Positions 11,541 through 34,079 of a DNA stretch of 64,000 nucleotides are shown in pieces. Both the position numbers and the translations under genes were made by a program. Position 1 is the first letter of the stretch, and the number at the start of each line of letters is the position of its first letter. The notes beneath the pieces are model-generated. The model saw only the letters and a list, made by a program, of their open reading frames with translations, searched no databases and had not been told where the DNA came from. This stretch comes from a virus (taxonomy: Duplodnaviria; Caudoviricetes). Where the stretch lies: IMG/VR virus record IMGVR_UViG_3300035182_001315; one strand, written 5' to 3'.

Positions 11541-12779
11541 ATGAGCAAAATCAAGGTTTTAGTTATCCCTTCCGACAGGACAGGTGTAAGTTATTTCAGA
11601 AGCACCAGCCCTCACATAGCCTTAGAAGAAAAATATCCCGACGAATTCCACATCGACATCGACTACGAGCCACAGATGCTCAATGACGAATGGGTGAAAC
11701 AATACGACATCATTCATTATCACCGTACACTTGGCCCTTTCGAAGGCGTTCCAGCCCTTTTGGATCGCATGGATAAGCTTGGCGTTGTTACTATAATGGA
11801 CTTGGATGACTATTGGTCTCCCGGCCCACACCATCCGGGGTATCTCATGATTAAGAATTCAGGTATGGATAAGCAAATCCTTGCTAACGTCCGTTCTGCA
11901 AGAAACATCACAACCACAACCCCTATATTCGCCGAAGAAATGAAGCGATTCAATCCGAACGTAACTGTTCTACCTAATGCCATTGACCCAAAACAAAAGC
12001 AATTCGTTTCGAATCCAGAACCTTCTGAAAGAATAAGAATCGGCTGGTTAGGCGGTTCAAGCCATTTGCATGACTTGGAAATCCTTAATGGACTTGTTAG
12101 TAAGGTAAAGAGCCATGGCCTTATAGATAAGGTACAATTCGTTCTGTGTGGATTCGATATCAGAGGCGCTATTACCATGATTGACGAGAAGACCAAAGAA
12201 CAGAAACAAAGACCTATCAAGCCACACGAAAGTGTTTGGTGCCAGTACGAAAGAATCTTCACGGATAACTACGGTACAATAAGCCCAGAATACAGAGCGT
12301 TCCTTGAACAGTTCATTCCTAATTCAGAATACCCAGATATCAAGAACCAACCTTACAGAAGAGTTTGGACAAAACCTATCAGCACATACGCTTCAAACTA
12401 TAACCTGTTTGATATCTCATTGGCACCAATCGAAGAGAATACCTTCAATAAGGTAAAGAGCCAGCTGAAGATAATTGAAGGTGGCTTCCATAAGAAAGCA
12501 GTTATTGCTCAGGACTTTGGCCCTTACCAAATCGATGTGAACCCAGCCAACAAATTCGGCGGCGAATGGGACCCAGAAGGTAACGGTATCCTTATTGACA
12601 CAAACAAAAATCATAAGGATTGGTTCAAGTATGTAAAGAAGCTTATTGAACAGCCAGAACTCATCGCTCAATTAAGTACAAATCTTCATAACATGGTGAG
12701 CCAGAAATATTCTGTATCAGCTGTTTCTGATGAAAGAAGAGAACTTTACAAGAGATTGGTTACTGAAAAAAAGAAGTAA
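11541..12779 (+). CDS. Glycosyltransferase, GT-B fold (GT4-like)
   Basis: IGWLGGSSH; DISLAPIEENTFNKVKSQLKIIEGG donor-binding motif. Confidence 0.8.
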   Translation: MSKIKVLVIPSDRTGVSYFRSTSPHIALEEKYPDEFHIDIDYEPQMLNDEWVKQYDIIHYHRTLGPFEGVPALLDRMDKLGVVTIMDLDDYWSPGPHHPGYLMIKNSGMDKQILANVRSARNITTTTPIFAEEMKRFNPNVTVLPNAIDPKQKQFVSNPEPSERIRIGWLGGSSHLHDLEILNGLVSKVKSHGLIDKVQFVLCGFDIRGAITMIDEKTKEQKQRPIKPHESVWCQYERIFTDNYGTISPEYRAFLEQFIPNSEYPDIKNQPYRRVWTKPISTYASNYNLFDISLAPIEENTFNKVKSQLKIIEGGFHKKAVIAQDFGPYQIDVNPANKFGGEWDPEGNGILIDTNKNHKDWFKYVKKLIEQPELIAQLSTNLHNMVSQKYSVSAVSDERRELYKRLVTEKKK

Positions 12780-12795
12780 AAAGTTTTAGCTAAGG

Positions 12796-12826
12796 TTGCA
12801 ACACTGGGAAAGTTTTGGTATATTTG
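12796..12826 (+). promoter_or_regulatory. Bacteroidota-type promoter TTGCAA-N17-TATATTTG
   Basis: TAnnTTTG at 12819-12826. Confidence 0.7.
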
Positions 12827-12842
12827 CGAAAATTCAATACCT

Positions 12843-13436
12843 ATGACTCCAATTTCTAATGAAACCATCGCAAAGAATGCGAGAAAATTCTTCAAAGTAG
12901 CCACAGAAAAGGGCTTCATGAACGACGAATTAATGACCTTCTTAGGCTCAAACTTTATCGAAGCACCAGCCACTACAATGAAGGACATGAATAACGCATT
13001 TAAGGGTGGTCTTATTGACCATATTCTTAAGGTTACAACCTATGCTATCGGCTTAAACGACCTTCACAAAACAAACAAGGTTGATGCAACAAGCATTCTT
13101 AAGGTTTGTTTCCTTCACCAGATTGGCAAGGCACATTCTTATGTTCCAAACCCATCACAATGGCATGTTGAAAAACAAGGAAAGATTTACGAATTCACTG
13201 ACCAGCTTTCTATGCGTGTTGGTGAACGCTCTGCTTTCTATGCATTGTCTCACGGTATTACACTTACCGAAGAAGAATACCAAGCCATCGTTAATCATGA
13301 CAAGGATGACTCCGACAAACAATCCAAATACCATAACTCATGGTTGGGTGATTTGTTGAAGATTGCCACGGTTATGGCCATCGCTGAAGAAAAAAATACT
13401 AAGCCAGCAGTAGCAGTAGCAGCAGTTGCTGAATAA
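12843..13436 (+). CDS. HD-domain phosphohydrolase (YhaM-like)
   Basis: GGLIDHIL...FLHQIGK...AIVNHD. Confidence 0.65.
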   Translation: MTPISNETIAKNARKFFKVATEKGFMNDELMTFLGSNFIEAPATTMKDMNNAFKGGLIDHILKVTTYAIGLNDLHKTNKVDATSILKVCFLHQIGKAHSYVPNPSQWHVEKQGKIYEFTDQLSMRVGERSAFYALSHGITLTEEEYQAIVNHDKDDSDKQSKYHNSWLGDLLKIATVMAIAEEKNTKPAVAVAAVAE

Positions 13437-13445
13437 TTTTATACC

Positions 13446-14027
13446 ATGGACGTAACAAGAATGACAGAGAAATTGCTTCTGACACTTGACCCAAATTCGG
13501 GTTATACTCAGAAGGATTTTGAAAAGGAATTCATGCAAGCAACGGTGAACTCCGCTGCTCTTAAGACAGACTTCTATAAGTTGAAGGTTAACTTCGTAAA
13601 CGAATCAAACAACCCAAACCCAGAGTACGCAACTCCCGGTTCTTCAGGCTTTGATTTACGTGCTAACCTTGAAGAACCACTTGAGATTCAAGCTGGACAA
13701 AGAAAACTGGTACCAACCGGCCTCTTCTTTGAACTACCAGACAACTATGAACTTCAGGTGCGCCCACGTAGCGGCCTTGCAATCAAGCAAGGTATTACCG
13801 TATTGAATACGCCGGGAACTGTAGATTCTGATTACCGTGGTGAAGTTAAGGTTATCCTTATCAATCTGAGCACAATCACTCAAGCCATTTTACATGGTGA
13901 TAGAATTGCTCAGGCAGTTATTGCTCCGGTTACAGCATCAAACATTGTGAAGCTACTTCAAATTGAAACAATTGGAACCAACACAGAAAGAGGTGCCGGT
14001 GGGTTTGGTTCAACGGGTTTACAATAA
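13446..14027 (+). CDS. dut: Trimeric dUTPase
   Basis: All five motifs: [33 protein letters not shown]. Confidence 0.97.
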
Positions 14028-14044
14028 TTCAAAAGATTTAATTT

Positions 14045-15511
14045 ATGATTACAGTAGTATATTGTACAAGAGAAGCAAACTCTAAGCACACAGACCATAT
14101 CATTAAGTCATCCGGCATGCCTAAGATGATTCAGGTAATTGAGATTGTTAATAACGGTGAAGCATTGACAAAGGCTTACAACCGTGGACTTGAAATGGCA
14201 AAGAATGATATCGTTGTATTTATGCACGATGACGTAACCTTTGACAACTCAGGCTGGGGAAAGAAATTGCTGAAGCATTTCCAAGAAACCGATTATGGTA
14301 TTCTTGGTTTAGCCGGTACTACAGACATCCCAGAAACAGGCAAGTGGTGGGAAGACCGCCAGAAGATGGTTGGTATTGTTAACCACGAAAGCGGCGGAAA
14401 GAAATGGGAATCAAAATACTCAAAGAGCTGGGAAGGTAGAATAACTGAAGTTGCTGTTGTTGATGGACTTTTCTTCGCAGTAAACAAGAAACGCATACAT
14501 GCAATCTTTGATGAAACAATCGATGGTTTCCACTTCTATGAATTGGATTTCGTATTGAGTAATCATCTTGATGGCGTAAAGGTTGGTGTTATTTACAACA
14601 TCCGTGTGACTCACAAATCTATCGGTCAGACAAACGCACAATGGGAATCAAACCGTGTTCAATTCTCAACGAAATTCGCCGACAAGCTTCCAATCAAGTT
14701 GGTACCAGATTTCCCTGAATCAGAAGAAATTGCTGACCCAAAGATTGATACACCAATCAAGGTGATTATCCAATCATCCGGCGATGGGGTAGTTCTTGAA
14801 AACCTGTATAATAAAATCATTTCTTTTGGATATCCAAGCCTGAGCGTGGTTGTTATCAGCAATGAAAGCAATTTCGAAGACTTGAAGCATCAATGCCAGT
14901 GGAACCCAGCAGTAAAGGTTTACGAAGGATTCTATAATTCACTTCCAAAGAACCTTTCAGTATTGAAGTTCGAAGATGACTTTATTACAAAAAGCGATGA
15001 GCTGGTTGTTTTCATGAACGACAATGTGAAGATTATTAACAACATCCTTACCAATTTCGCCAAGCTTTATAAGATAAACAAGAATACATTCGGTGGCGCT
15101 TTCCCGCTGGCTTACAATGAGAACAGAACAATTTTCTCTTCAAGTCTGAGCATCTTTGCTGACAAGGAAAACAAGGTGGGTATCGATATGAGAGATGGTA
15201 ATTCTTATTATAATGTGCAGTACGGTTACATTGTGAATGCGCTGGGAAACCTTGCGGATTGCTTTGCTACAACAGCAAATAACTTGGTACTTTTGGATTG
15301 GTTCAAGAATAACTTCGAGACCCCAATGTATTTCAATGAATTTGCTTTAAGGCTTTACTTAAAGAAGAAAATTGTGTATAATGATACAAACTCCCTGACG
15401 GTGCAGAAATCATTCTCTGGTCAACACAATATCCAGCAGGATTTCCAAACCTACATCGATGCAATTGCTTCCGATGTCAATTTACAGGCGTTGGTAAAAC
15501 AGATAAAATGA
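14045..15511 (+). CDS. Glycosyltransferase GT2-like with a second degenerate GT-A-like domain
   Basis: KAYNRGL...VVFMHDDV...VDGLFFAV...FHFYELD. Confidence 0.8.
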   Translation: MITVVYCTREANSKHTDHIIKSSGMPKMIQVIEIVNNGEALTKAYNRGLEMAKNDIVVFMHDDVTFDNSGWGKKLLKHFQETDYGILGLAGTTDIPETGKWWEDRQKMVGIVNHESGGKKWESKYSKSWEGRITEVAVVDGLFFAVNKKRIHAIFDETIDGFHFYELDFVLSNHLDGVKVGVIYNIRVTHKSIGQTNAQWESNRVQFSTKFADKLPIKLVPDFPESEEIADPKIDTPIKVIIQSSGDGVVLENLYNKIISFGYPSLSVVVISNESNFEDLKHQCQWNPAVKVYEGFYNSLPKNLSVLKFEDDFITKSDELVVFMNDNVKIINNILTNFAKLYKINKNTFGGAFPLAYNENRTIFSSSLSIFADKENKVGIDMRDGNSYYNVQYGYIVNALGNLADCFATTANNLVLLDWFKNNFETPMYFNEFALRLYLKKKIVYNDTNSLTVQKSFSGQHNIQQDFQTYIDAIASDVNLQALVKQIK

Positions 15512-16290
15512 TAAAAATAATTTCAGGTTATACAGATAAAGGTGGCTCAACGGTCGCCTTTATCAATTTGACGAACGCCCTGAATGCTGCCGGTTACGAA
15601 ACCATCATGTACGGGCCACATCCGTGGTTTATGCATCATTGCAAATCAGATACCATTCAGAACTTTAAACCGGAACCAGATGATAATGTCATTGCTCACT
15701 TCTTGGATTTGAAGGTTAGGCCGAACGTTAAAAAGATTGTTTTGGCTTGCCATGAGAAATGGTGGTATGACGTAGCTAAGGTTCAACAGTTCTGGGATGA
15801 GGTAATCTTCCTGCATAAGGCACATAGAGAATATCATGGCGGTTATAGAGGCGATTGGACCATAATTCCGAATATCAAGGAACCTTTCATAATGAGAGAG
15901 AAACCAGAATTGGATTTGGTTGCCGGTATCGTTGGTGGAATTGAAGACAGGAAACAAACTCATGTTTCAATTCAAAGAGCGATGAAAGACCGTTGCAAAC
16001 AGATTTATCTTTTCGGTGGAATAAACGACAAAAGATATTACGAGCAAATGGTTAAACCCATGCTCAATCCAAGGATAATTGAATACGGCTACGCTTCAGA
16101 TAAACAAGCCATGTACGATTTGGTTGGTAGGGTTTATCACTCATCGAAAGGTGAAGTGGCATCACTGGTAAAGGATGAGTGTTTTTCAACCGGCACAAAA
16201 TTTTTCGGTAACGAGGAAACGGAAAATCAAATCTCAACACTTACCAATAACGAGGTTGTAGACCTTTGGAAAATAGTTTTTAGCTTATGA
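15508..16290 (+). CDS. Glycosyltransferase, GT-B-like
   Basis: GGSTVAFINL N-terminus; YHSSKGEVASLVKDEC C-terminal motif. Confidence 0.6.
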   Translation: MIKIISGYTDKGGSTVAFINLTNALNAAGYETIMYGPHPWFMHHCKSDTIQNFKPEPDDNVIAHFLDLKVRPNVKKIVLACHEKWWYDVAKVQQFWDEVIFLHKAHREYHGGYRGDWTIIPNIKEPFIMREKPELDLVAGIVGGIEDRKQTHVSIQRAMKDRCKQIYLFGGINDKRYYEQMVKPMLNPRIIEYGYASDKQAMYDLVGRVYHSSKGEVASLVKDECFSTGTKFFGNEETENQISTLTNNEVVDLWKIVFSL

Positions 16291-17003
16291 TAATACACGC
16301 ACATATACTGGCATGGAACGAAGAAATGATTCTTCCGTATACCTTGGATTACTACTCCCTGATATGCGATAAGATTTTCGTCTATGATAACATGTCTACC
16401 GATGGTTCTGACGCAATTTACGCCAAGTATCCAAAAGTAAGTGTTATCAAGTGGTCAAGCAATGATGAGATAAACGAAATGAATTACGTTAACATCAAAT
16501 CAATGGCTTATCGGGAAACGAGCAGAGATGCTGACTGGGTTATTGTTTGTGATTGTGATGAATTTTTGTATTCTCCAATGTTATTAGAAGTACTGGAGAT
16601 TTATAAAATCACAGGGGTAACCGTTCCGAAAATTAATGGTCATGACATGGTGTCTGCAACCTTCCCAGAATACGATGGTGGTTCATTAATTGCTAAGATT
16701 AGAACTGGTTCGGATGTTTACGGCCCGATGAGCAAGAATATCATCTTTAACCCAAAGCTGGATGTATCCTATGGGATTGGTGGACACAGCTTTCAGGCTC
16801 CGGGTGCGGTTTATTCAGAAGCCGTTAATTTAAAATTGCTTCATTATAAGTTCCTTGGTAAGGATTATGTAAAGAAGCTTTATATCGCCAGAGCCAAGAG
16901 ACTTTCAACTTGGAACAAGCAGCATAAGTTCGGCGAGCATTACTTCAACCTTCCGTTCGAATACATGGATAGGTTGTTGAAAGAAAACAGACAAGTTATA
17001 TGA
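16287..17003 (+). CDS. Glycosyltransferase GT2-like
   Basis: WNEE...YDNMSTDGS...WVIVCDCDEF (DxD). Confidence 0.8.
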   Translation: MIIHAHILAWNEEMILPYTLDYYSLICDKIFVYDNMSTDGSDAIYAKYPKVSVIKWSSNDEINEMNYVNIKSMAYRETSRDADWVIVCDCDEFLYSPMLLEVLEIYKITGVTVPKINGHDMVSATFPEYDGGSLIAKIRTGSDVYGPMSKNIIFNPKLDVSYGIGGHSFQAPGAVYSEAVNLKLLHYKFLGKDYVKKLYIARAKRLSTWNKQHKFGEHYFNLPFEYMDRLLKENRQVI

Positions 17004-17824
17004 GACAAATATTAGTATCAGACTTTACCATAAAGGAAGTTTCCCACGGTGGTTCAGAATGGGTAAACCAAGTGGTTATGGACAGATTTCCAGACTTAGA
17101 ATTCTGGTATTCTCAGCAAGTAACTGAATGGGATAAGGATGCATTTTATATTATCTCTAACATTTCTCTAATGAATCAGGCTTTGGTTAGACAAATCCCC
17201 AGCCTCAACTACATAATCTTAGAAAACGACTATAAAATTTGTCATAGCCGTCATCCATGGCGCTGGCCCAATTCTTTGGTTCCTCATAACGAGCGCATAA
17301 ACTACGATATCTATGCGAATGCAAAGGCTGTTTTTGTACAGACAACAGACCACATGAATGTTTACAAGGCCAATGATGTGAAGGCAAACTTTATCAATCT
17401 GAATTGTTCCATATGGTCCGATTCGGATTTGGCATTATTACAAAGTTTTTTACGCAAGAAACCTTTGAAAAATGGAAAACAAGCGGTATATTCTACGGGA
17501 AACTGGATTAAAAATACTGAAGGTGCGGTTAAGTACTGTGCTGAAAATAAACTAGAAGCTGTGCAGATTGAAAATCAGGAGAAGAGAGAAGACTTTTTGG
17601 ATAAGCTGTCCGATTGTTCTGGGTTGGTATTCTTCCCAATTGCGAGAGAAACCTTTTGCAGGTTGTTGGTTGAGGCCAAGTGTCTTGGATTGAAGGTGAC
17701 TACTAACAAGAATTCGGGGGCGGCTATGGAGAATTGGTTCGGTATGGAAGGTGAAGACCTCTTGAAGTTCCTGAAGATAAAAACTGAAATAAACCTTAAG
17801 AAAATTGGGGAATACATAAAATAA
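17000..17824 (+). CDS. Glycosyltransferase, GT-B-like
   Basis: HGGSEW; FFPIARETFCRLLVEAKCLGLKV. Confidence 0.7.
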   Translation: MRQILVSDFTIKEVSHGGSEWVNQVVMDRFPDLEFWYSQQVTEWDKDAFYIISNISLMNQALVRQIPSLNYIILENDYKICHSRHPWRWPNSLVPHNERINYDIYANAKAVFVQTTDHMNVYKANDVKANFINLNCSIWSDSDLALLQSFLRKKPLKNGKQAVYSTGNWIKNTEGAVKYCAENKLEAVQIENQEKREDFLDKLSDCSGLVFFPIARETFCRLLVEAKCLGLKVTTNKNSGAAMENWFGMEGEDLLKFLKIKTEINLKKIGEYIK

Positions 17825-17829
17825 AAGTA

Positions 17830-18765
17830 ATGAGTATTAAAGAATGGCTTAGACGACAAGCGATGGCGATAACACTCGCTGTTACCAATGTTCAAAAAAA
17901 TGCTTTGAACCAAGAAGCCAATGAGCTTACTGCTGGCTCAAATCTTGAACAGAAGAAGGAATCGAGCGATTTGCTTCAGGCATTGTTGCGTGGTGAGGTT
18001 AACCAAGAAGTGAAAGACCTTCGCTGGAGAACATATAAGGTTATGAAGGCCGCAGAAAAGAAAAACGCCAGACTTATCCCTAAGATGATTTATGGTGAAA
18101 ATGGAGAAAGAGAATTTGCTTATGATGAAGAAGGTAGTATTATTTTTGAATCTGCAACCGTTAATCCTCGAAACAAAGAAAGAGCACTCGAAAAGGTCGT
18201 TGTTGATTTGACAGATAACTATCCAGTAAAGATGGTTGTAAAGAATGAGCCAGTTACCAATCCACTTGATTCAAAAGCAGACGAGAACATGGTTGTCGGA
18301 TATTCTTCCAAGAATCTTAATGATATGCCAATCAAAATTATCAGAGATTTTGTACCAAAGTTTGAGATTGAAAACTACGCAAAGAAAATGGTTGTAAGAA
18401 CCATCTCCGATACGGAAGTTCTTTTGGAGTTCTATATCAGCAAATACATAGACCCGTACAACGCTTCAAGCAAAATGCTCGTAGCTGAAATGAATAAAAT
18501 ACTGACCAATGGTCCCGACAAGGTTAATTCTCTTGAAATAAAGGAAGTTGGTTTCATTTCTGACAATACTATCGGTTCTGATGACTTCATGGGTTACGCA
18601 TATGATATTATTGGGTTTGACAAGATTGTTGATTTCGACGGGTATTACGTTCTGAAATTCAAGGCAACCGTAACTCTGGATGGTGAAGACCTGATGGAAA
18701 AATACAGGGAAGCTGAACTTGACAGGAAGTATAATGAAAAGGAACAGAGAAAAATGACCATATGA
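17830..18765 (+). CDS. Hypothetical protein
   Basis: Long ORF, translationally coupled; no motif recognised. Confidence 0.7.
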   Translation: MSIKEWLRRQAMAITLAVTNVQKNALNQEANELTAGSNLEQKKESSDLLQALLRGEVNQEVKDLRWRTYKVMKAAEKKNARLIPKMIYGENGEREFAYDEEGSIIFESATVNPRNKERALEKVVVDLTDNYPVKMVVKNEPVTNPLDSKADENMVVGYSSKNLNDMPIKIIRDFVPKFEIENYAKKMVVRTISDTEVLLEFYISKYIDPYNASSKMLVAEMNKILTNGPDKVNSLEIKEVGFISDNTIGSDDFMGYAYDIIGFDKIVDFDGYYVLKFKATVTLDGEDLMEKYREAELDRKYNEKEQRKMTI

Positions 18766-21649: not shown

Positions 21650-21680
21650 TTTACATATTTATTTTTAATTAGTATCTTTG
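21650..21680 (+). promoter_or_regulatory. Bacteroidota-type promoter TTTACA-N17-TATCTTTG
   Basis: TAnnTTTG at 21673-21680, 7 nt before ATG 21688. Confidence 0.7.
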
Positions 21681-22458: not shown

Positions 22459-22459
22459 C

Positions 22460-26017: not shown

Positions 26018-26327
26018 TTTACGTGATATGGTGGGTGGTTGGTTTGTAGGTAACTTCGAACCGGCAGCATTACAAACAGATACTTTCGAGGTTTGTTATA
26101 AGCATCATAAAGAAGGTGAAGTATGGGACACACATTACCATAAGGAAGCCATTGAAGTTAATTTATTGGTTAAGGGTACGATGTTCATTAACGATATGAA
26201 GATAGTAGCTGGTGAAATCTTTGTTATTCCACCTTATTATGTTTCAGCACCAGTATTTGCAAGTGATTGTGAGCTGGTCGTAATTAAAACACCTTCAATT
26301 AAGGGTGACAAATATGTAGTAAAATAA
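25998..26327 (+). CDS. Cupin-fold protein
   Basis: HYH...E metal motif; GEIFVIPP. Confidence 0.75.
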   Translation: MNMRIYNLRDMVGGWFVGNFEPAALQTDTFEVCYKHHKEGEVWDTHYHKEAIEVNLLVKGTMFINDMKIVAGEIFVIPPYYVSAPVFASDCELVVIKTPSIKGDKYVVK

Positions 26328-26332
26328 ACGAT

Positions 26333-27514: not shown

Positions 27515-28152
27515 TGATTATAAGTAATTTCGTAAACCATATCCTTGGTCAGAACAAGGATTATTCACCAAAGGTAATCTTGGACATCGGTTCAAGAGAC
27601 CTTGGCCAGAGCATTGAGCTGGGCTCCGTGTTCCCGAATGCCAAGATTTATGCCTTCGAACCAAACCCAGAACAGTTTAAGATTTGTGCTGAGTTAGCTA
27701 AGAATTATCCAAATATCACCGCAATTCCCAAGGCTGTAAGCAACATCACCGGCACCTTGGATTTTTATGTAACTCATGGTAACGTGGGCGCATCATCAAC
27801 GCTGGAACCTCTTGACGTTCCGTTCGGTACAAGCAGGGACTTTACAAAGATTACTGTTGAATCAATCATCCTTTATGATTGGTTAAACGCTGAAGGAATT
27901 GACCAAGTTGACGTTATGTGGATGGACGCTCAGGGTATCGAATTGTCTGTATTGAAAAGTCTTGGTGAAAAATTGGAAAAAGTTAAGTATCTTCACTGTG
28001 AAGCGGCAGAAATTGGGTATTACAAGGGACATCAGTTGAAGGCTGAGCTTGATGAATACTTGGTTTCAATGGGTTTTGACCTTTTATTTAAAAACGAAGC
28101 ATACCATCCTTACAAAGAGGGAGATATTATTGCTACAAACAGAAACATATGA
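27514..28152 (+). CDS. FkbM family methyltransferase
   Basis: LDIGSRD...FEPNP...AVSN...VDVMWMDAQGIE. Confidence 0.85.
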   Translation: MIISNFVNHILGQNKDYSPKVILDIGSRDLGQSIELGSVFPNAKIYAFEPNPEQFKICAELAKNYPNITAIPKAVSNITGTLDFYVTHGNVGASSTLEPLDVPFGTSRDFTKITVESIILYDWLNAEGIDQVDVMWMDAQGIELSVLKSLGEKLEKVKYLHCEAAEIGYYKGHQLKAELDEYLVSMGFDLLFKNEAYHPYKEGDIIATNRNI

Positions 28153-28712
28153 TACTTATAAGCCACAGGGGGAACATTGACGGCATCAATCCAAAATTGG
28201 AGAATGACCCGATGTATATCAAGATGGCCCTGACCATGGGTTATCATGTTGAAATTGACGTTTGGTATTCAAACGAACAATGGTACCTTGGCCATGACCT
28301 ACCAACGTTTCCAATTGATGAATCATTTCTTGAGAATGATAAGCTTTGGTGCCATTCGAAGAATCATTACGCAATGGAGAAGATGTTACATAACCATTTG
28401 ATTCATTGTTTCTGGCATGAGAATGACCAGCTGACCCTCACTTCAAAAAGATTTGTGTGGACATATATGGGTAAGAATCAAATAGCAAATTCAATTGCTG
28501 TTCTCCCTGAGAAATTTCCATTCAGAGAGATTTCACCAAACGTTGTTGGTATATGCAGCGATAATATTAAAAATTATAAAGGTAATGATATTACTCACTT
28601 ACGGAACCCGTCCAGAATATATAAAGGTTCATCCAATAATGGTGGAGATGACCAGAAGGCAAATGAAATTCAAGACTCTTTTCACAGGCCAACACAAGGA
28701 CCTGCTATCTGA
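28149..28712 (+). CDS. PLC-like/GDPD-type phosphodiesterase (short TIM barrel)
   Basis: LISHRGN...VEIDVW...LGHD...WCHSKN...GICSD. Confidence 0.65.
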   Translation: MILISHRGNIDGINPKLENDPMYIKMALTMGYHVEIDVWYSNEQWYLGHDLPTFPIDESFLENDKLWCHSKNHYAMEKMLHNHLIHCFWHENDQLTLTSKRFVWTYMGKNQIANSIAVLPEKFPFREISPNVVGICSDNIKNYKGNDITHLRNPSRIYKGSSNNGGDDQKANEIQDSFHRPTQGPAI

Positions 28713-29622
28713 TAATGAAGCTGATTACAATCACCCATTTGAAAACTTCCCCGGTAACCGTTTAGATTCGGTATTGAAGAATTGCTTGAGCCTGAACGAT
28801 AGATACTTTGATGGTATCACCCATGTATTGGTACAAGGTGATACAACGTCTGTATTGGGATTGGCTATAACAGCAATGCACAGAGGATTAAAGATTATTC
28901 ATCTTGAAGCTGGGCTAAGAACTTATGATAAACAGAATCCATTCCCAGAGGAAAACAATCGTAGACTTATTTCAGCAATCGCTGATATTCATTTATGTCC
29001 AACAATACAGAGTCAATCAAATTTAATTCGAGAAGGTATTGATGAGAATGATACATACCTTGTTGGTAACACCGGCTTAGATGAAATCTTAAAAAAAATA
29101 ATTCCTCTCCGTGATACAAGTGAACCAAAAGAAATATTAATAACTCTTCATAGACGAGAAAATCACGAGAAGATGGATGAGTGGTTTACCGCAATTAATG
29201 ATTTAGCCAAGGACTATCCACAATATAATTTTGTTGTCCCTTTGCATCCAAACCCAATGGTACAAAAGCATAAAGATTTATTAACAGATGTTGTTATCGT
29301 TGAGCCAATGTCTCATTTTCAATTGTTAAATTTCATCTCAAGAAGTAGATTGGTAATAACCGATTCGGGCGGTATTCAAGAAGAATGTTCGTTCTTGAGA
29401 AAGAAAGTGCTGGTTTGTCGTAAGATAACCGAAAGGCCAGAATCGCTGGGGTTAACGTCATGGCCGGTTATGACTCCAAACGATTTGAAGAATCTGTTTA
29501 GGAAACACAGTAGTTCCTATTTTGTTCCGCCAGATACATATTGTCCATACGGGGACGGGCATGCCTCAGAAAAAATCTGTGATATATTTCAGGGTTGGTG
29601 TAACTTCGAAAAAGGTCTTTGA
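28585..29622 (+). CDS. wecB: UDP-N-acetylglucosamine 2-epimerase (non-hydrolysing)
   Basis: GTRPE, TGQH, QGDT, HLEAGLR, PEE-NR, TLHRRE, TDSGGIQEE, ERPE; start placed at ATG 28585. Confidence 0.95.
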   Translation: MILLTYGTRPEYIKVHPIMVEMTRRQMKFKTLFTGQHKDLLSDNEADYNHPFENFPGNRLDSVLKNCLSLNDRYFDGITHVLVQGDTTSVLGLAITAMHRGLKIIHLEAGLRTYDKQNPFPEENNRRLISAIADIHLCPTIQSQSNLIREGIDENDTYLVGNTGLDEILKKIIPLRDTSEPKEILITLHRRENHEKMDEWFTAINDLAKDYPQYNFVVPLHPNPMVQKHKDLLTDVVIVEPMSHFQLLNFISRSRLVITDSGGIQEECSFLRKKVLVCRKITERPESLGLTSWPVMTPNDLKNLFRKHSSSYFVPPDTYCPYGDGHASEKICDIFQGWCNFEKGL

Positions 29623-29630: not shown

Positions 29631-29642
29631 TAAAAAGACTGC

Positions 29643-30479
29643 ATGATTAAAAAAGCGTCCGAAAAGAAACCAAGAGGTAGGAAATCCCTTTCCGCCTCGT
29701 CCGAGACCGTTACAGAAATCAAAAACAAAGCAACCTTACCAGAACTAATCAAATTCGCCCAGCCCTTCAAGTGCAAGACTAAAAACCAGAAGATATTGGC
29801 CCAACTCATTGCTGAGAAGGAAATTATCATCGCTTCTGGAGCTGCCGGTGTGGGTAAAACCTACGTAGCAATCGCTATTGCGCTAGAACTGATTAAGTCC
29901 ACAAACACACCCTTTAACAAAATTATCATATCCAAGCCAGCCGTGGAATCCGAAGAGGAACATGGCTTTTTGCCGGGAGACCAAAGAGAGAAGATGGAAC
30001 CATTCGTGGCATCCATTCTTGATATCATTGACAAGCTTATCGGCAAGGGCAGCAGGTTGGCCTTGGAAGAGGCTGGATACCTCGAAATCATGGCTCTGGC
30101 CTACGTTAGAGGTAAATCCATCGATAACGCCATTTTCATACTTGATGAGGCGCAGAACACATCCCCAAGCCAAATGAAGACGGTTCTAACCCGTATTGGC
30201 TATAACTCCAAGTTTGTAATCACTGGTGACCTTGACCAATCAGATAGGTACCGTCATATCCATGAGAGTGGATTGTATGATGCTATCAAAAAACACAAAA
30301 ATATCCCAGAAATCGGATTTATTGAGTTTGATTTGGAGGATATCGTGAGAAACAAATTGATTAGCAAGATTTTGGAGAACTACAAACAGCCGGAATTTGT
30401 TCAAAAACCAAAGGTTGTTTTGGTTAAACCAGAGAAAAAATTGCCTTGGTGGAAGAAATTTCTTAATTGGCTTCATTAA
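29643..30479 (+). CDS. phoH: PhoH family ATPase
   Basis: GAAGVGKT, LAYVRG, ILDEAQN, TRIG, GDLDQSD, DIVRN. Confidence 0.95.
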   Translation: MIKKASEKKPRGRKSLSASSETVTEIKNKATLPELIKFAQPFKCKTKNQKILAQLIAEKEIIIASGAAGVGKTYVAIAIALELIKSTNTPFNKIIISKPAVESEEEHGFLPGDQREKMEPFVASILDIIDKLIGKGSRLALEEAGYLEIMALAYVRGKSIDNAIFILDEAQNTSPSQMKTVLTRIGYNSKFVITGDLDQSDRYRHIHESGLYDAIKKHKNIPEIGFIEFDLEDIVRNKLISKILENYKQPEFVQKPKVVLVKPEKKLPWWKKFLNWLH

Positions 30480-30534: not shown

Positions 30535-30540
30535 AATTCC

Positions 30541-31143
30541 ATGAGGATAGGTATATCAATTAATGAAGTTTTAAGAAACTTTTTGGGGCAGTTAATCTAC
30601 ACTTACGAAAAGTATATTGGCGAACTCGACATCAATACGTCAGATGTAACGGACTTTGACCTTATAAAGTCATTCCCTTTCGTTACTGAAGCTGAGATGA
30701 AGAGATTCCTTTACGCTGGAGAAGGCTCATTGGAAGTCTTCGGCCACGCTGATGAGATGACAGATGGTCTTATGGGTCACTTCAATCGTTTTGTTTTGGA
30801 TCTGAAGGACGATGGTCATTACGTTGAGCTTACCGGCAAGGAAGCCAACAAAAGCATTCAATCTACTTTTTTCTACTTATCAAAAACAGGTTGCAGAATC
30901 AGCGACATTCGCTTTGTTACAGACAGTACCAAGGAATGGGACGGCCTCGACCTTTTGATTACTGCGAACCCAGACGCACTTAAAAACAAACCCAGCGGCA
31001 AAATCAGCATCAAGATAAACGCACCGTATAACACCGATGCTCCGGCTGATTACGCCTTCGACTCAATCGTTGATTTCATAAAAGATTTCAATCTACGTGA
31101 TGTCGTATTAAATACCAAAATAACAACTTACGAAGAAATTTAA
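30541..31143 (+). CDS. 5'(3')-nucleotidase (NT5C/HAD)-like protein with degenerate catalytic motif
   Basis: MRIGISINEVLRNF resembles HAD motif I; C-terminal INAPYN. Confidence 0.5.
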   Translation: MRIGISINEVLRNFLGQLIYTYEKYIGELDINTSDVTDFDLIKSFPFVTEAEMKRFLYAGEGSLEVFGHADEMTDGLMGHFNRFVLDLKDDGHYVELTGKEANKSIQSTFFYLSKTGCRISDIRFVTDSTKEWDGLDLLITANPDALKNKPSGKISIKINAPYNTDAPADYAFDSIVDFIKDFNLRDVVLNTKITTYEEI

Positions 31144-31147
31144 AACT

Positions 31148-31498
31148 ATGATAGAATTCGGTGACAGCCAGTATTACATCGACCTTGACACCTTGGATAA
31201 ATTGATTACATTAAAAGGTAGCAAGGTTGACGAAGTTACAGTCAAAACAATCACGAACCAAACAACTGGTGTTATAACTGTAGAGAAAGAAGAATTTACA
31301 AGGAAGTCAGAAGAAGGAAAGACCATCGACATGGCCAAGTATGACATGTTAAAATATTTCATTGAACTCTTGGTTGAGGATGAAAGCGTCGATGATGATT
31401 CACTGGGTTCTGAGAGAGCACTAAACAAAGCTTCATTAGCTTATAAGATAGTATTTAACACCCTCTTAAAAGAAAACGTTCTTAAAGAGGCAGAATAA
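31148..31498 (+). CDS. Hypothetical protein
   Basis: ORF in operon. Confidence 0.7.
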   Translation: MIEFGDSQYYIDLDTLDKLITLKGSKVDEVTVKTITNQTTGVITVEKEEFTRKSEEGKTIDMAKYDMLKYFIELLVEDESVDDDSLGSERALNKASLAYKIVFNTLLKENVLKEAE

Positions 31499-31514
31499 AA
31501 AACAAAACACCAAT

Positions 31515-32636
31515 ATGGAAGACAAGCAAACAAAATTGGACCAAGTTAAAGGGTTCATCAAGAATTTAGAGAATAAAGATTTTACGCTTTATTTCTTCAC
31601 GCTCGACACAAAGGGTAATCCTACTGCCGGTATCGCAAACATTTACGAACACGTAAAGGTTTTGAACAGTTTGGGTTACAAAGCCGTTATTCTTCATGAA
31701 AAGAATGACTACAAATTACACGCTGATGAAGCTGGTATGGGTATCGCAGAATGGCTGGGTGCTGAATACGCTGCATTGCCACACAAGGCAATCGAAGGTC
31801 AGAACCTGAATATCAGACCAACTGATTTCATCGTTATTCCAGAAATTTTCTCTACCATCATGGACCAAGTTAAATCTTTCCCATGTCGTAAGATTGTATT
31901 CTGCCAAAGCTATGACTATCTTTTGGAACTCCTTCCAATCGGTAAGAGATGGGATTTGGATTACGGCTTCAGCCATGTTATTACTACAAGTGAAAGACAA
32001 GCTGCTTACGTAAGACAATTGTTCCAGTACTCAAAGACTTACATTACTCCGGTGAGCATTCCTGAGTACTTCAAACCAAGCGTTACACCTAAGGTACCAA
32101 TCGTATCTATCGTTACAAGAAATCCGGGTGATGCTGCTAAGATTGCCAAGGCGTTTTACTTGCAGTACCCAATCTACAAGTGGATTACCTTCAAGGAACT
32201 TAGAGGTCTTTCAAGAGAACAATTTGCTGAAGACTTGGGTAAAAGTTGCTTAGCCGTATGGGTTGATGAAACTGCTGGTTTTGGTACATTCCCACTTGAA
32301 GCATTTGAGTGTGGTACACCTATCATTGGTAGAATCCCTAACATGGTTCCTGATTGGATGGAAACACTTGATGAGAACGGCAATGCTGTTATCAAGAACA
32401 ACGGTGTTTGGACCAACACATCAATCAACATTCCAGAACTTATCGCTACATACCTGAAGGTATGGTTCGAGGATTCAGTTCCAACTGAATTGTTGAACGT
32501 GATGAAAGAATCAGCTGGTAAATATACACCTGCTGCTCAGGCTGCTGCAATCGAAAATGTGTTCGCACAATTGGTTGCTGAAAGAATCGCTGAGCTTAGC
32601 AAACTAATCGAAAACGAAGAAACTGCTACAGCCTAA
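31515..32636 (+). CDS. Glycosyltransferase, GT-B fold
   Basis: AGIANIYEHV; VIPE; ETAGFGTFPLEAFECGTPIIG. Confidence 0.8.
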   Translation: MEDKQTKLDQVKGFIKNLENKDFTLYFFTLDTKGNPTAGIANIYEHVKVLNSLGYKAVILHEKNDYKLHADEAGMGIAEWLGAEYAALPHKAIEGQNLNIRPTDFIVIPEIFSTIMDQVKSFPCRKIVFCQSYDYLLELLPIGKRWDLDYGFSHVITTSERQAAYVRQLFQYSKTYITPVSIPEYFKPSVTPKVPIVSIVTRNPGDAAKIAKAFYLQYPIYKWITFKELRGLSREQFAEDLGKSCLAVWVDETAGFGTFPLEAFECGTPIIGRIPNMVPDWMETLDENGNAVIKNNGVWTNTSINIPELIATYLKVWFEDSVPTELLNVMKESAGKYTPAAQAAAIENVFAQLVAERIAELSKLIENEETATA

Positions 32637-33256
32637 TGGAAACGCTAATTGACATAATAAGAGAATTGGAAGCTGAGCTGTCATCAAGTAACGGTGACTA
32701 CTTAGAAATCAAGGGTATTAAAGAGAGTTATAACCAACGTCTCTTGGCTCAGTCACAATTCAGTGGGGTTACAAGAATCAATTGGCTTGAAACACCTATA
32801 TTCAAATCAGATGATAAGACTGGAATTCCATTGACTTCAATCCAAAATTATTTGGGTGTTGACAAGGTACTTATTCAAGCAGTTGAGGAATTCTCATTTC
32901 ACCCAACAGAAAGCCAAGTGGTTTTCAACGATGAGATTGATGTATTCGGTTTCCGTGTATCATCAAACATCTACGATACTTCAAACTTGGGAAAGGGTGT
33001 TTGGAAATATCCAAAGCTTTATCATCCAGCAACATTTTCAGAACAGGATAAGATTGTTATCAACTACTCCTTTTCTGACATAAAAGAAAATTTTAAATTA
33101 ACTGATGCAGAAACAAAGGCATATATCCAAGCCGTAGTTCTTCCTCAGGTAGCTGAGTTGATTGAGGCTGACGAATCAAATGCGCCACACCAAAATTATA
33201 TCGGCATAAGATGTTCAAAAAGGAGCATCAAAAGCATAAATAAACATTCAAGCTAA
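32636..33256 (+). CDS. Hypothetical protein
   Basis: ORF coupled by TAATG overlap. Confidence 0.65.
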   Translation: METLIDIIRELEAELSSSNGDYLEIKGIKESYNQRLLAQSQFSGVTRINWLETPIFKSDDKTGIPLTSIQNYLGVDKVLIQAVEEFSFHPTESQVVFNDEIDVFGFRVSSNIYDTSNLGKGVWKYPKLYHPATFSEQDKIVINYSFSDIKENFKLTDAETKAYIQAVVLPQVAELIEADESNAPHQNYIGIRCSKRSIKSINKHSS

Positions 33257-33266
33257 AACCATAACC

Positions 33267-34079
33267 ATGGAAAAATCAAACATAACCGTAATTATCCCAG
33301 TACACCAATTACAAACTGAAGGAATAACAGAACTTTTTCAGAACGCTCTTATAAGTGTTCAAATACAAAAGGTATTGCCGGATGAAGTTATTGTTGTAGT
33401 ACCATATGTAAACAATAATGTTTTACATGATGTTAGCGAAATTTTGGACAAACCAGAACTTGCTGCAATCAAAACAATTACAAGAATCGTAGAACACGAT
33501 AAAGGAATGGATTTCGCTTCTCAGGTAAACTACGGCGTATCTCAAGCCAAAACTGAATGGGTAACCATTCTTGAATACGATGACGAACTTGCCAATATCT
33601 GGTTAAAGAACGTTGTTGAATACAGAAAGGCTTTTCCTACAGTAGGATTGTTCATGCCGATTGTTGTTGACGTTGATGCTGCTGGCCAGTTCATCGGATT
33701 CACAAACGAAGCAGTATGGGCCAATAGTTTCTCAGATGAACTGGGTATACTGGACCTTAACGCACTTCTGGTTTACCAGAACTTCAACCTCGATGGTATT
33801 GTTATCAAGAAAGAAATCTACGAAGAGAACGGTGGTATCAAGCCAAGTATCAAGCTTACATTTATCTATGAATTCCTGTTAAGAATGGCGTTCAAGGATG
33901 TTAGAATAATGACCATCCCACGTTTCGGTTACAGGCACGTTAACCAGAGACCAGATTCATTGTTCGCAAGACTAAAAGCTGAAATCGACCCAATTGAAGC
34001 TAAATGGTGGTTGAGCCAAGCTAAGAAAGAATACTATTTTGAAAAGGATAGAAAGCTTTCATACACAACAACGAAATAA
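33267..34079 (+). CDS. Glycosyltransferase GT2
   Basis: ITVIIPVH...VNYGV...TILEYDDE...YEFLLR...YRH. Confidence 0.85.
   Translation: MEKSNITVIIPVHQLQTEGITELFQNALISVQIQKVLPDEVIVVVPYVNNNVLHDVSEILDKPELAAIKTITRIVEHDKGMDFASQVNYGVSQAKTEWVTILEYDDELANIWLKNVVEYRKAFPTVGLFMPIVVDVDAAGQFIGFTNEAVWANSFSDELGILDLNALLVYQNFNLDGIVIKKEIYEENGGIKPSIKLTFIYEFLLRMAFKDVRIMTIPRFGYRHVNQRPDSLFARLKAEIDPIEAKWWLSQAKKEYYFEKDRKLSYTTTK

Follow-up and report, generated by a model that had tools for sequence, protein, structure and literature searches.

The locus described here raises the question of what a phage builds with a long run of soluble sugar enzymes, and to which acceptor the product is attached. It occupies positions 11541-34079 of the window, i.e., the whole 64,000-nucleotide stretch that was analysed, and its source is an uncultured large T4-like phage of a far-T4-like lineage. 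Samples containing this lineage were sediment and microbial mat, no cultured relatives were found, and the host is suspected to belong to Bacteroidota. The answer that we tentatively favour is a functional line of glycan assembly that works entirely in the cytoplasm, acting on virion proteins late in infection.

The island comprises about 28 tightly packed genes, all on the + strand, with ORFs at the positions given in the initial annotation. GC content was uniform (0.39-0.41) and the same as in the remaining phage DNA, which argues against a recent import. Nine glycosyltransferase (GT) genes or domains were supported, four of them solid and five probable; the earlier count of about 12 was slightly generous, as the proteins at 15508 and 17000 are GT-B-like by eye only. 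The four methyltransferases reported previously were recovered, those at 23053 and 27514 as solid assignments and those at 20888 and 22460 as weak ones. The other island enzymes are a GDP-mannose-3,5-epimerase fused to a WavE-like domain, WecB, a sugar-1-phosphate nucleotidyltransferase, dUTPase and PhoH. The genes up to 20888 and from phoH onward, together with the flanking elements, were as follows.

11465-11491, + strand: strong intrinsic terminator, a 12-bp stem followed by a T run, which ends the upstream operon
11541-12779, + strand: probable GT-B (GT4-like), frame gene (PF13439 N-domain, E 5.9e-5, below cut-off); 63-71% identity in relatives
12843-13436, + strand: conserved 197-aa protein, faint HD-domain match, Bacteroidota-type TAnnTTTG element upstream
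13446-14027, + strand: dUTPase (PF00692, E 4.2e-26)
14045-15511, + strand: GT2_5 glycosyltransferase (PF13712, E 3.6e-28); C-terminal half (about 280 aa) without family assignment
15508-16290, + strand: 260-aa protein, N-terminus GT-B-like by eye; no significant family match, 56-63% identity in relatives
16287-17003, + strand: GT2_4 glycosyltransferase (PF13704, E 1.5e-17)
17000-17824, + strand: 274-aa protein, GT-B-like at the N-terminus; no family match
17830-18765, + strand: fastest-evolving island gene (33-44% identity in relatives)
18762-19481, + strand: lineage-core GT2 (PF00535, 29.2 bits against a cut-off of 23.3; 128 IMG/VR loci)
19474-20193, + strand: GT-D-like glycosyltransferase (Atlas feature score 0.96)
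20193-20888, + strand: GT-A-fold protein (AF2 pLDDT 93.3), E75-D76 invariant in the alignment
29643-30479, + strand: PhoH-like ATPase (PF02562, 3.4e-63), with ATATTTAT upstream at 29622
30541-31498, + strand: two conserved genes (200 aa and 116 aa), no family match
31515-32636, + strand: probable GT-B, frame gene (PF00534, E 0.0074; PDB 8xsg, 3.9e-5); 66-74% identity in relatives
32636-33256, + strand: 206-aa ORF, counterparts almost absent in relatives (one locus match)
33267-34079, + strand: GT2 (PF00535, 27.9 bits against a cut-off of 23.3)
34079-34807, + strand: phage sigma factor (PF04542, E 1.6e-5; 41 IMG/VR loci), abutting the island end
40832-40853, + strand: next comparable terminator
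40858-41703, - strand: GT2 (PF00535, 2.5e-6) of a satellite operon (40858-42419) beyond the island span
41700-42419, - strand: polysaccharide pyruvyl transferase (PF04230, 5.8e-8) of the same operon

The stop codon of the last GT2 overlaps the sigma factor start, as had been read from TAATG at 34077-34081. From 11.5 to 40.8 kb the island and the baseplate genes are co-directional, with no strong terminator between them. In the Atlas, the GT-D-like protein matched viral clusters of which 16-52% of the members carry PF08759/PF22882. The model of the GT-A-fold protein retrieved SpsA in Foldseek (2.8e-7), as well as Mimivirus R699 and TarS, and makes this protein a probable glycosyltransferase.

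The initial annotation described all island proteins as soluble and the window as lacking membrane partners. Both statements were borne out. The Kyte-Doolittle 19-residue maximum stayed below 1.6 in all island proteins with three exceptions, namely an Ala-rich Rossmann stretch (23053, 1.69), the P-loop region of PhoH (1.68), and a value of 2.40 at residue 16 of a spurious TTG extension of the WecB ORF upstream of 28585. A WecB start at 28495 was rejected; the true start is 28585, giving the N-terminus MILLTYGTRPE. In a Pfam scan, neither the island proteins nor the flanking ones matched a flippase, polymerase, ABC permease or initiating transferase. Membrane partners elsewhere in the genome, named earlier as evidence that would count against the proposal, were sought in four complete relatives (266-345 kb, CheckV-100%), and no Bac_transf, WecA/MraY-type, Wzx, Wzy_C or ABC2_membrane protein was found genome-wide, while positive controls were found in 10-14 of 14 genomes. 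Soluble GTs are, on the other hand, also the rule in undecaprenyl-P-linked pathways.

Island orthologues were intact and syntenic, at 45-80% identity, in more than 100 related IMG/VR contigs. Their conservation equalled that of the baseplate genes downstream, which points to purifying selection, and by these comparisons the island is core to the phage lineage. The variable central part lies between the lineage-core GT2 and WecB; from 20888 to the end of WecB, this phage has the following features.

20888-21646, + strand: class-I methyltransferase, weak (PF00891, E 2.2e-4)
21655-21680, + strand: late-like ATATTTAT and, after it, a TAnnTTTG element, both preceding the genes of the 21688-29622 run
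21688-22458, + strand: 256-aa protein of the variable cassette, no family match
22460-23056, + strand: FkbM-like methyltransferase, weak (PF05050, E 0.0038)
23053-23610, + strand: Methyltransf_24 (TylF-like) methyltransferase (PF13578, E 1.3e-19)
23607-25295, + strand: GDP-mannose 3,5-epimerase fused to a WavE-like GT domain (residues 356-442; PF07507, E 4.6e-6)
25292-26017, + strand: sugar-1-phosphate nucleotidyltransferase (PF00483, 4.1e-9; 4evw, 2.4e-8)
25998-26327, + strand: small cupin with a phosphosugar-isomerase-like fold (Atlas TM 0.81-0.88 to Cupin_2/MannoseP_isomer clusters; phrog_24762)
26333-27514, + strand: form IV RuBisCO-like protein, RLP (PF00016, 1.6e-35)
27514-28152, + strand: FkbM-family methyltransferase (TIGR01444, 4.9e-21)
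28149-28712, + strand: mini GDPD-like phosphodiesterase, domain at residues 1-145 (Atlas TM 0.64 to the GDPD cluster)
28585-29622, + strand: WecB, lineage-core non-hydrolysing UDP-GlcNAc 2-epimerase (TIGR00236)

Three enzymes named in the initial annotation were corroborated here by profile matches: the epimerase (302 bits, 7.9e-89 to plant GME 2c59, next family 83 bits), WecB (233.9 bits, over the cut-off of 210.15), and the nucleotidyltransferase at 25292. In one relative (L005) the epimerase and WavE-like halves are separate genes.

Among the IMG/VR contigs compared, GT2 of the 18762 family and WecB were adjacent in 43 of 60 loci, and in L079 their ORFs overlap. The gap is 9.1 kb here, and relatives carry inserts of 0.7-11 kb. 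At the same place L052 has DegT, FkbM, a hexapeptide acetyltransferase, GT11-like, NodZ-like and MT_24 proteins and two SDRs, by gene families a different amino-sugar/fucosyltransferase cassette, and the complete relative G004 has a different HAD-NTase precursor module. Since the two genes are adjacent in most loci and the gap contents differ between relatives, the exchangeable cassette within a GT frame, as proposed earlier, is real. Its limits, however, are about 19.5-28.6 kb, set by the GT2 at 18762-19481 and WecB at 28585, and not 15.5-29.6 kb. In most close relatives genes 14045-19481 are part of the conserved frame, and WecB is a core gene; the genes at 19474 and 20193 are widely conserved and located after WecB in distant relatives.

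The nucleotidyltransferase-cupin-RLP-FkbM-GDPD-like module (25292-28712) includes three genes, for the RLP, the cupin and the GDPD-like protein, which had been overlooked. Phage RLPs have already been published. Alignments to form III enzymes and MtnW, together with the family invariants, place this one in form IV, and a carboxylase was rejected. It retains K175, K177, K201, D203, E204, H327, S379, G381, G403 and G404, while E60 is replaced by G, T65 by N and K334 by Y; Arg is not kept at R295, where the alignments place either F261 or the invariant K263. The GDPD-like protein has the motifs H6-R7-G8, E18-N19, E35-x-D37 and H49-D50, and a 42-aa read-through tail overlapping WecB, its homologues being 150 aa long. 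The nucleotidyltransferase is fused to the RLP in P0091/P0107/P0117, and viral NTase-cupin fusions exist. The module genes were also found in marine phage glycan islands unrelated to this one.

The motif ATATTTAT was counted 24 times, where 5.2 occurrences were expected. It stands 5-20 nt in front of tail-fibre, baseplate, protease and terminase genes, and also ahead of 21688, phoH and the pyruvyltransferase-GT2 operon; in the operon it lies 4-5 nt ahead of the ATG. It is a late-like promoter motif, defined by position only.

According to the assembly line that we favour, the conserved soluble frame (GT4-like, GT2_5, GT2_4, GT2 18762, GT-D-like, GT-A 20193, GT-B 31515 and GT2 33267) would build a common core glycan. 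This core would probably contain ManNAc from WecB, and the GT2 at 18762 is a candidate ManNAc transferase, because it lies directly beside WecB in most relatives. Precursor and tailoring cassettes would be swapped at the hot spot between the two. The present cassette is predicted to supply L-galactose or L-gulose through the epimerase-WavE-like fusion, O-methyl groups through three to four methyltransferases, and another activated sugar through the RLP module. There, the RLP may enolise, isomerise or 3-epimerise a mono-phosphorylated keto-sugar, and its product would pass to the cupin isomerase and the nucleotidyltransferase for further processing. The glycan would be attached to phage virion proteins in the cytoplasm, late in infection. 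Such attachment appears the most likely because no lipid-carrier initiation or membrane-transfer step is present in the window or in the complete relatives. Indirectly, the late-like motif, the GT-D fold and analogy with giant viruses also point to virion proteins. Enzymes with this fold are known to O-glycosylate serine-rich adhesins in the cytoplasm. Virion glycosylation occurs in chloroviruses, mimiviruses and some mycobacteriophages. To our knowledge, where large viral collections of soluble GTs, methyltransferases and NDP-sugar enzymes have a proven role, in chloroviruses and mimiviruses, that role is virion decoration. No conserved acceptor tail was found among the virion proteins in the window; the protein at 58453-59556 has S/T-rich tracts that are only partly conserved. 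If virion attachment is true, cassette exchange would give virion 'serotypes'.

The same enzymes could instead lengthen a host primer linked to undecaprenyl-PP at the membrane's inner face, with export by a host flippase or ABC transporter and a ligase, a reading that we regard as rather unlikely. In ECA and the teichoic-acid linkage unit, WecB and a ManNAc transferase classically carry out the second step, on Und-PP-GlcNAc, which the core GT2-WecB pair would fit. In ABC-dependent O-antigen pathways, methyl caps at the chain end serve as signals for export. Host-type TAnnTTTG elements stand in front of two island operons, at 12843 and 21688. 'LPS' clusters of T4-like cyanophages are already published; they lie near phoH in P-SSM2, S-SSM7 and S-SCSM1, as does the island, and the epimerase here is 56% identical to that of S-SSM7. 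Host-surface modification is the standing hypothesis for these homologous clusters (PMC9602691). The altered LPS, capsule or O-glycan would then block superinfection or the sticking of progeny to debris, and cassette differences would track host glycan types. However, with no initiating transferase, flippase, polymerase or ABC permease found in the four complete relatives, the phage would depend on the host for each membrane step. A lineage-core GT frame, conserved like structural genes in contigs from many different samples, is also unexpected if diverse host glycans had to be matched, and we know of no proven precedent for a lytic large phage building a glycan of at least nine sugars for export within one cycle.

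That the enzymes serve another cytoplasmic target seems improbable. They would then glycosylate either host proteins or non-structural proteins of the phage, or produce a metabolite derived from nucleotide sugars, a signal or a soluble oligosaccharide. The RLP module might in that case be a metabolic unit independent of the GTs: a 10.4-kb contig (L009) carries the NTase-RLP fusion, cupin and GDPD-like genes and no recognisable GT, and in the complete relative G003 (locus L072) the GT2-WecB gap is filled by WavE-like-NTase-cupin-RLP alone. Yet in most contexts examined the module lies inside a glycan island, the WavE-like GT accompanies it in this lineage, and at least nine GTs, methyltransferases and a pyruvyltransferase suggest a complex polymer and not a metabolite.

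Very unlikely, in our judgement, is a glycan on modified phage DNA bases that would serve restriction evasion. Phage GTs putting several sugars on DNA are known from work cited in PMC12619734, a dUTPase lies within the island, and relatives carry a thymidylate-synthase-family gene. The matches of the latter (287-323 bits, full profile) suggest ordinary ThyA and not a hydroxymethylase; no hydroxymethylase, base kinase or DNA-GT family was found in the window, and at least nine GTs, O-methylation and pyruvylation go far beyond known DNA glycans. Non-functional passenger ('stuffer') DNA, raised for cyanophage clusters (PMC3037559), is hardly credible for an island of intact, tightly coupled ORFs with genome-like GC and orthologues conserved in the same order.

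The fast-evolving protein at 17830 showed, over residues 115-290, a weak resemblance to the tail-tube/Hcp/Dit beta-barrel (AF2 pLDDT 68; VIA Z 5-6; Foldseek E at least 0.013), and this modelled likeness is treated as a lead only.

The glycan-synthesis island (11541-34079) was found in the same genome as a T4-type virion module, in which MCP, portal, protease and TerL were recognized and which gave tblastn matches to T4-like phages. The window samples 64 kb of this large tailed phage, and its virion genes are placed as follows.

97-8986, minus strand, tail-fibre genes
about 35.9-40.8 kb, probable baseplate genes
46944-48809, MCP of the T4-type head module (phrog_138, 4.1e-69)
50277-50972, prohead protease
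51545-51880, minus strand, 111-aa protein in the head module and outside the island, strongly hydrophobic in one C-terminal segment (KD 2.64)
52958-55024, portal (phrog_213, 2.7e-61)
55324-57138, TerL

The MCP was only about 41% identical to that of any isolated phage, the nearest matches being Microcystis phage Mel-JY01, Flavobacterium 'immuto' phages and an uncultured 484-kb phage. The lineage is uncultured and differs from the T4-like cyanomyoviruses. The island had no match at the nucleotide level when 50,697 phage genomes were searched with Megablast, and no tblastn match among isolated phages was obtained for the RuBisCO-like protein (RLP), GT2_5, the GT2 starting at 18762 or the GT-D-like protein. 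The longest contig encoding the RLP of the window measured 228,620 bp, and DNA of the window was found in sediment and microbial-mat metagenomes. No RNA dataset was among the sequencing runs listed as containing it, which has no bearing on expression. Promoter-like elements of the host type, TAnnTTTG, precede genes 12843 and 21688 and suggest a Bacteroidota host; the hosts are presumably Gram-negative.

All genes between 11541 and 34079 lie on the plus strand, most stops and starts overlapping or abutting, and the GC content of 0.39-0.41 is that of the remaining window. The TAATG overlap between the stop of the last GT2 and the start of the sigma factor, at 34077-34081, reads as first described. 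The GT genes, and others added to the earlier account, are listed here by start or full coordinates.

11541, plus strand, GT4-like N-domain
14045, plus strand, GT2_5, solid profile match
16287, plus strand, GT2_4, solid profile match
18762, plus strand, GT2, solid profile match
19474, plus strand, GT-D-like protein (Atlas features 0.96)
20193, plus strand, predicted GT-A fold (structure model pLDDT 93; matches SpsA, TarS and Mimivirus R699)
C-terminus of the 23607 protein, plus strand, WavE-like domain
25998-26327, plus strand, cupin
26333-27514, plus strand, RLP
28149-28712, plus strand, mini GDPD-like protein
31515, plus strand, GT-B
33267, plus strand, GT2, solid profile match
40858-42419, minus strand, operon of a polysaccharide pyruvyl transferase and a GT2, among the virion genes

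The cupin, the RLP and the mini GDPD-like protein were absent from the initial annotation, which had counted about 12 GT genes or domains and four methyltransferases. Nine GTs in the island kept profile or fold support, four of them solid, while 15508 and 17000 were left without a family match; two methyltransferases were solid and the other two matched weakly. Nothing was found in Pfam at E <= 10, PHROGs or NCBIfam for 15508, 17000, 17830, 21688, 30541, 31148 and 32636, and the PDB sequence search with 11541 and 14045 gave no match. The GDP-Man 3,5-epimerase and WecB, both named earlier, were borne out. Residues 4-346 of the 23607 protein matched 2c59 with 302 bits (7.9e-89), the next family reaching 83 bits, and by sequence this N-terminal part of 346 residues is specifically GDP-mannose-3,5-epimerase-like (GME). 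WecB, the non-hydrolysing UDP-GlcNAc 2-epimerase, scored 233.9 bits with TIGR00236, above the equivalog cut-off of 210.15; its true start is 28585 and not the TTG at 28495. Hydropathy revealed no plausible TM helix or signal peptide in any island protein, in agreement with the earlier view that these enzymes are soluble.

Several peculiarities of gene structure were recorded. The GDPD-like ORF (28149-28712) overruns WecB (28585-29622) by 128 nt in a different frame; its homologues are about 150 aa long and stop ahead of the next gene. In L005, a locus from a relative, a NUMOD3 homing-endonuclease gene sits between these two genes, and the island there carries GIY-YIG and NUMOD3 homing-endonuclease insertions (6681-7268, 12630-13319). 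The GME and WavE-like parts, fused in the window, are separate genes in L005. A 206-aa ORF at 32636-33256 on the plus strand, between the GT-B at 31515 and the GT2 at 33267, had a counterpart in one relative locus and may be a recent insertion.

Relatives were retrieved from IMG/VR with the sigma factor (41 loci) and the GT2 18762 (128 loci) as queries, and all island proteins were compared with these loci by tblastn; the RLP as a single-protein query gave no match in IMG/VR. Most close relatives shared a conserved frame of genes at 45-80% identity, similar to the downstream baseplate genes. The frame consists of the following genes in window order.

Before the variable region: 10360, 10823, GT4-like, 12843, dUTPase, GT2_5, 15508, GT2_4, 17000, 17830, GT2 18762, GT-D-like, GT-A 20193
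Beyond the variable region: GDPD-like, WecB, PhoH, 30541, GT-B 31515, GT2 33267, sigma factor

WecB directly followed the homologue of GT2 18762 in 43 of the 60 loci with both genes, the alignments of such adjacent pairs being 23-46 nt apart and the ORFs overlapping in L079. The gap between these two genes is 9.1 kb in the window, and other relatives had inserts of 0.66, 1.4, 2.5, 2.9, 4.5, 5.3, 5.7, 7.3, 8.4 and 11 kb at the same place. Three loci (L005, c43398_272 and c47547_161) were syntenic with the window throughout, with an RLP of 78-81% identity, and c27969_43 and the 345-kb c37466_3310 were without RLP and cupin. In c23174_4619 the gap of about 10.6 kb was filled with unrelated genes, 9.7 kb having no match to genes of the window.

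Cassette of c23174_4619: DegT aminotransferase, FkbM, hexapeptide acetyltransferase, GT11-like and NodZ-like fucosyltransferases, MT_24, two SDR enzymes

A further alternative precursor module is the fusion of an HAD (phosphatase/mutase-like) domain with a nucleotidyltransferase, located at 15591-16958 of L079 inside the same island of G004, a distant complete relative. Because relatives differ in the content of the GT2-WecB gap inside a conserved GT frame, we regard the exchange of cassettes, as read from these comparisons, as real. The exchangeable cassette proposed in the initial annotation thus stands, and its limits of 15.5-29.6 kb do not: the hot spot is at about 19.5-28.6 kb, and WecB is a core gene outside the cassette. 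That precursor cassettes are exchanged at one hot spot implies that the structure of an exposed glycan is under selection.

The cassette of the window contains the RLP. Its residues were read from alignments to solved form III RuBisCOs and MtnW and from a 26-member family alignment. The fold was that of the RuBisCO large chain (PF00016, 1.6e-35). The residues kept were K175/K177 (K153-P-K155), K201/D203/E204 (K179, D181, E182), H327 (H296), S379/G381 (S328, G330) and G403/G404 (G352, G353), and the P1 site is kept. Those lost were E60 (now Gly), T65 (now Asn), K334 (an invariant Tyr303) and R295 as Arg, while the equivalent of H294 is H260 or Q262 depending on the alignment used. Judged from these residues, the protein is a form IV RLP with the carbamate/Mg site kept and the carboxylation residues lost, and it should form a Mg2+-stabilised enediolate of a mono-phosphorylated keto-substrate without carboxylation. 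The best PDB match was MtnW, 2oek (1.4e-35). Identity with MtnW was rejected at 125.6 bits (equivalog cut-off 513.6), with Q102/G101 where MtnW has its catalytic Lys98 (Lys98/Asn123 position), as was identity with OiaX at 123.1 bits (cut-off 700).

More than 2,500 metagenomic RLP homologues were found at E <= 0.001; the best 120 had 63-80% identity, and three clusters among these best 120 were nucleotidyltransferase-RLP fusions. Nucleotidyltransferase-cupin fusions also exist in viruses. The genes for nucleotidyltransferase, cupin, RLP and GDPD-like protein, often together with FkbM, recurred in unrelated phage contigs, usually within glycan islands. In G003, a complete relative (locus L072), the GT2-WecB gap held WavE-like, nucleotidyltransferase, cupin and RLP genes alone. 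Elsewhere the set lay alongside an SDR epimerase and UDP-glucose dehydrogenase (L007), or occurred as a fusion on a 10.4-kb Tara contig with no recognisable GT (L009). In L132 (marine, Tara) and L133 it was found amid two CMP-sugar synthetase genes, GT8, MptE/Maf-like and sulfotransferase-like genes, with an additional sialyltransferase-like gene and a pyruvyl transferase in L132; these two loci represent a phage glycan island of another kind, probably with ulosonic acid in its glycan.

RuBisCO itself misprotonates its substrate to xylulose bisphosphate. We propose that the RLP would act on a keto-sugar phosphate as an isomerase or 3-epimerase, with the product then processed and activated by the cupin and the nucleotidyltransferase. 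The proposal is drawn from the gene fusions, the genomic setting and what is known of the chemistry of the superfamily. With MtnW and with OiaX/OiaC of apiose catabolism the RLP shares the fold, the carbamate/Mg2+ site and a single phosphate site, but its context is glycan synthesis instead of methionine salvage or catabolism. Phage RLPs have been described as a divergent form IV-like clade of unknown function, lacking carboxylase residues, in the genomes of large Myoviridae-type phages from a variety of environments (Jaffe et al., 2018, Mol Biol Evol, PMC6389311); here, in difference from that work, the RLP is placed in a recurrent NTase-cupin-RLP(-FkbM)-GDPD-like set. In the literature searched we found no paper linking RLPs to nucleotide-sugar synthesis, nucleotidyltransferases or GTs. 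The orphan phage RLP family thereby gains a concrete biochemical context, with a nucleotidyltransferase, a cupin isomerase, a GDPD-like enzyme and natural gene fusions, and if the proposal is true it would be the first biosynthetic role of the RuBisCO superfamily outside carbon fixation, neither catabolic nor salvage.

The octamer ATATTTAT occurred 24 times in the window, about five-fold over the 5.2 expected, and none of 100 shuffles reached 24. Its sites include 9003, 21655, 29622, 34834, 39022, 42424, 50990, 52927, 57143 and 62068. Correctly oriented copies stood 5-20 nt before one tail-fibre and one baseplate gene, before the genes for the protease and TerL, and before further head genes as well as the gene that precedes MCP. 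The octamer also preceded phoH, the pyruvyltransferase-GT2 operon and 21688, the gene that opens the run with methyltransferases, the GME-WavE fusion, the RLP module and WecB. It is a candidate late promoter of the lineage, an assignment and a timing that rest on analogy to the late promoters of T4. At the pyruvyltransferase-GT2 operon (40858-42419) 4-5 nt separate the octamer from the ATG, so that the transcript would be nearly leaderless. Strong plus-strand terminators were found only at 11465-11491 and 40832-40853, and hence no strong terminator separates the island from the baseplate genes. Generic scans for sigma-70 promoters and for terminators did not exceed what shuffled sequence gave, the two or three strong terminators excepted.

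Membrane partners were searched for in the records of five relatives (G001-G005), four of which were CheckV-100% complete (266-345 kb, one of them with terminal repeats). At E <= 0.01 these genomes contained no initiating transferase of the Bac_transf or WecA/MraY type and no Wzx, Wzy_C or ABC-2 permease (PF01943, PF04932, PF01061), while identical family searches were positive in 10-14 of 14 control genomes. The initial annotation had held that such partners elsewhere in the genome would speak against glycosylation of virions; none turned up in these relatives. Nor did the scanned island and flanking proteins give a Pfam match to an initiating phosphoglycosyl transferase. The sole strong TM segments among proteins of the window were those of 51545-51880 (KD 2.64) and the N-terminal stretch (KD 2.2) of 97-2328, a tail-protein ORF started by GTG. 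The island resembles bacterial O-antigen and capsule loci in its conserved frame flanking exchangeable sugar-precursor, GT and tailoring genes, and WecB, FkbM-type methyltransferases and pyruvyltransferase are typical components of those loci, but the defining membrane parts (initiating transferase, Wzx/Wzy, ABC transporter) are missing from it. The island was not recognized as a Wzx/Wzy- or ABC-dependent surface polysaccharide locus, as initiating transferase, flippase/polymerase and ABC-2 permease were absent from the scanned island and flanks and from G001-G005. With no membrane step in complete relatives, the choice is narrowed to an acceptor in the cytoplasm or to export that depends wholly on the host.

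Virion proteins are the acceptor that we tentatively prefer, at somewhat less than an even chance. The complete relatives lack any membrane step, the frame is core to the lineage with conservation comparable to that of structural genes, and the island carries the late-like motif and is contiguous with baseplate genes. The GT-D fold is known from the O-glycosylation of serine-rich adhesins in the cytoplasm. To our knowledge, wherever a role has been proven for a large viral set of soluble GTs, precursor enzymes and methyltransferases, that role is virion decoration. Chloroviruses, mimiviruses and mycobacteriophages of the cluster-F type glycosylate virions with virus-encoded soluble GTs and no membrane partners; these GTs work in the cytoplasm without ER/Golgi, and in the giant viruses they are accompanied by virus-encoded NDP-sugar synthesis and sugar methyltransferases. 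The modelled fold of 20193 would add a likeness to mimivirus, as it matches R699 among other GT-A enzymes. In those systems, however, the glycan has been shown on virions, whereas the present lineage is known from genes alone. The mycobacteriophages use only 2-4 GTs together with acceptor tails at the C-terminus, of which none was found here, and, unlike the hosts of giant viruses and mycobacteriophages, those of the present lineage are presumably Gram-negative bacteria.

Remodelling of the host envelope is a possible but more doubtful reading. Soluble GTs are standard in lipid-linked pathways as well, WecB with a ManNAc transferase classically performs the step following Und-PP-GlcNAc, and promoter elements of the host type are present. 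The island has contiguous NDP-sugar epimerases, GTs and methyltransferases near phoH, as T4-like 'LPS' clusters do. Such clusters in cyanomyoviruses (P-SSM2, S-SSM7, S-SM2, S-SCSM1) also lie on a T4-like structural backbone, fill at least 12 kb of a variable region close to phoH with genes for NDP-sugar epimerases, methyltransferases and soluble GTs, and include a homologous GDP-Man-3,5-epimerase-type SDR (56% identity in S-SSM7). The window differs in that its lineage comes from sediment and mat and is not cyanobacterial, none of 50,697 isolated phage genomes has a homologue of its core GTs, insertions occur at a defined hot spot between GT2 and WecB, and an RLP module is present. The published proposal for the analogous clusters of cyanophages, which are near phoH and share GME, is modification of the host surface (PMC9602691). 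Other cytoplasmic targets or products appear improbable. DNA as the target is considerably less probable still, as the ThyA-family gene in relatives scores like ordinary ThyA and lends no support to hydroxymethyl-base chemistry. That the island is non-functional is very improbable: the cluster belongs to the core of an abundant uncultured lineage, where it is under selection, and is hence not filler DNA.

Virion glycosylation, phage RLPs and large 'LPS' clusters of phages had all been described before, and large glycan clusters in T4-like phages have been on record since 2005-2010; we know of nobody who has demonstrated their role. New here are a frame of genes conserved throughout the lineage, one hot spot between GT2 and WecB, the finding that complete relatives lack membrane partners genome-wide, and the RLP in a nucleotide-sugar module. 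A speculative and rather unlikely picture, taken in full, is that a whole large-phage lineage, probably with Gram-negative Bacteroidota as hosts, would coat its virions with a complex, methylated, pyruvylated glycan made wholly in the cytoplasm and swap cassettes at one hot spot to give 'serotypes', the RLP cassette being a new route to an activated rare sugar. If virion glycosylation is true, large aquatic phages would join giant viruses and actinophages in this phenomenon, with bearing on adsorption to hosts, environmental persistence and grazing avoidance.

Possible acceptors within the window were also considered. The fastest-evolving gene of the island, 17830-18765 on the plus strand, had 33-44% identity to its homologues versus 60-80% for its neighbours, and its homologue lies after WecB in the 345-kb relative. 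The protein gave a weak tail-tube/Hcp/Dit-like beta-barrel signal and is a candidate acceptor, as a lead only; a structural role was not accepted, the tail-tube-like matches being no better than VIA Z 5-6, Foldseek E >= 0.013 and Atlas TM < 0.5. The motif [S/T]-G-x-[S/T] occurred 15-30 times per 1000 aa in tail-fibre proteins versus 0-5 in enzymes; it was not counted as evidence for a sequon, because fibrous beta-structures normally have such a composition. A 367-aa head-module protein without known family (58453-59556, minus strand), adjoining TerL, has Ser/Thr-rich tracts at both ends, reaching 63% S/T across 30 residues near the C-terminus. The tracts are partly conserved, as the N-terminal one recurs in the relative G002 and the C-terminal one does not, and the protein is possibly an O-glycosylation acceptor or a disordered internal head protein.
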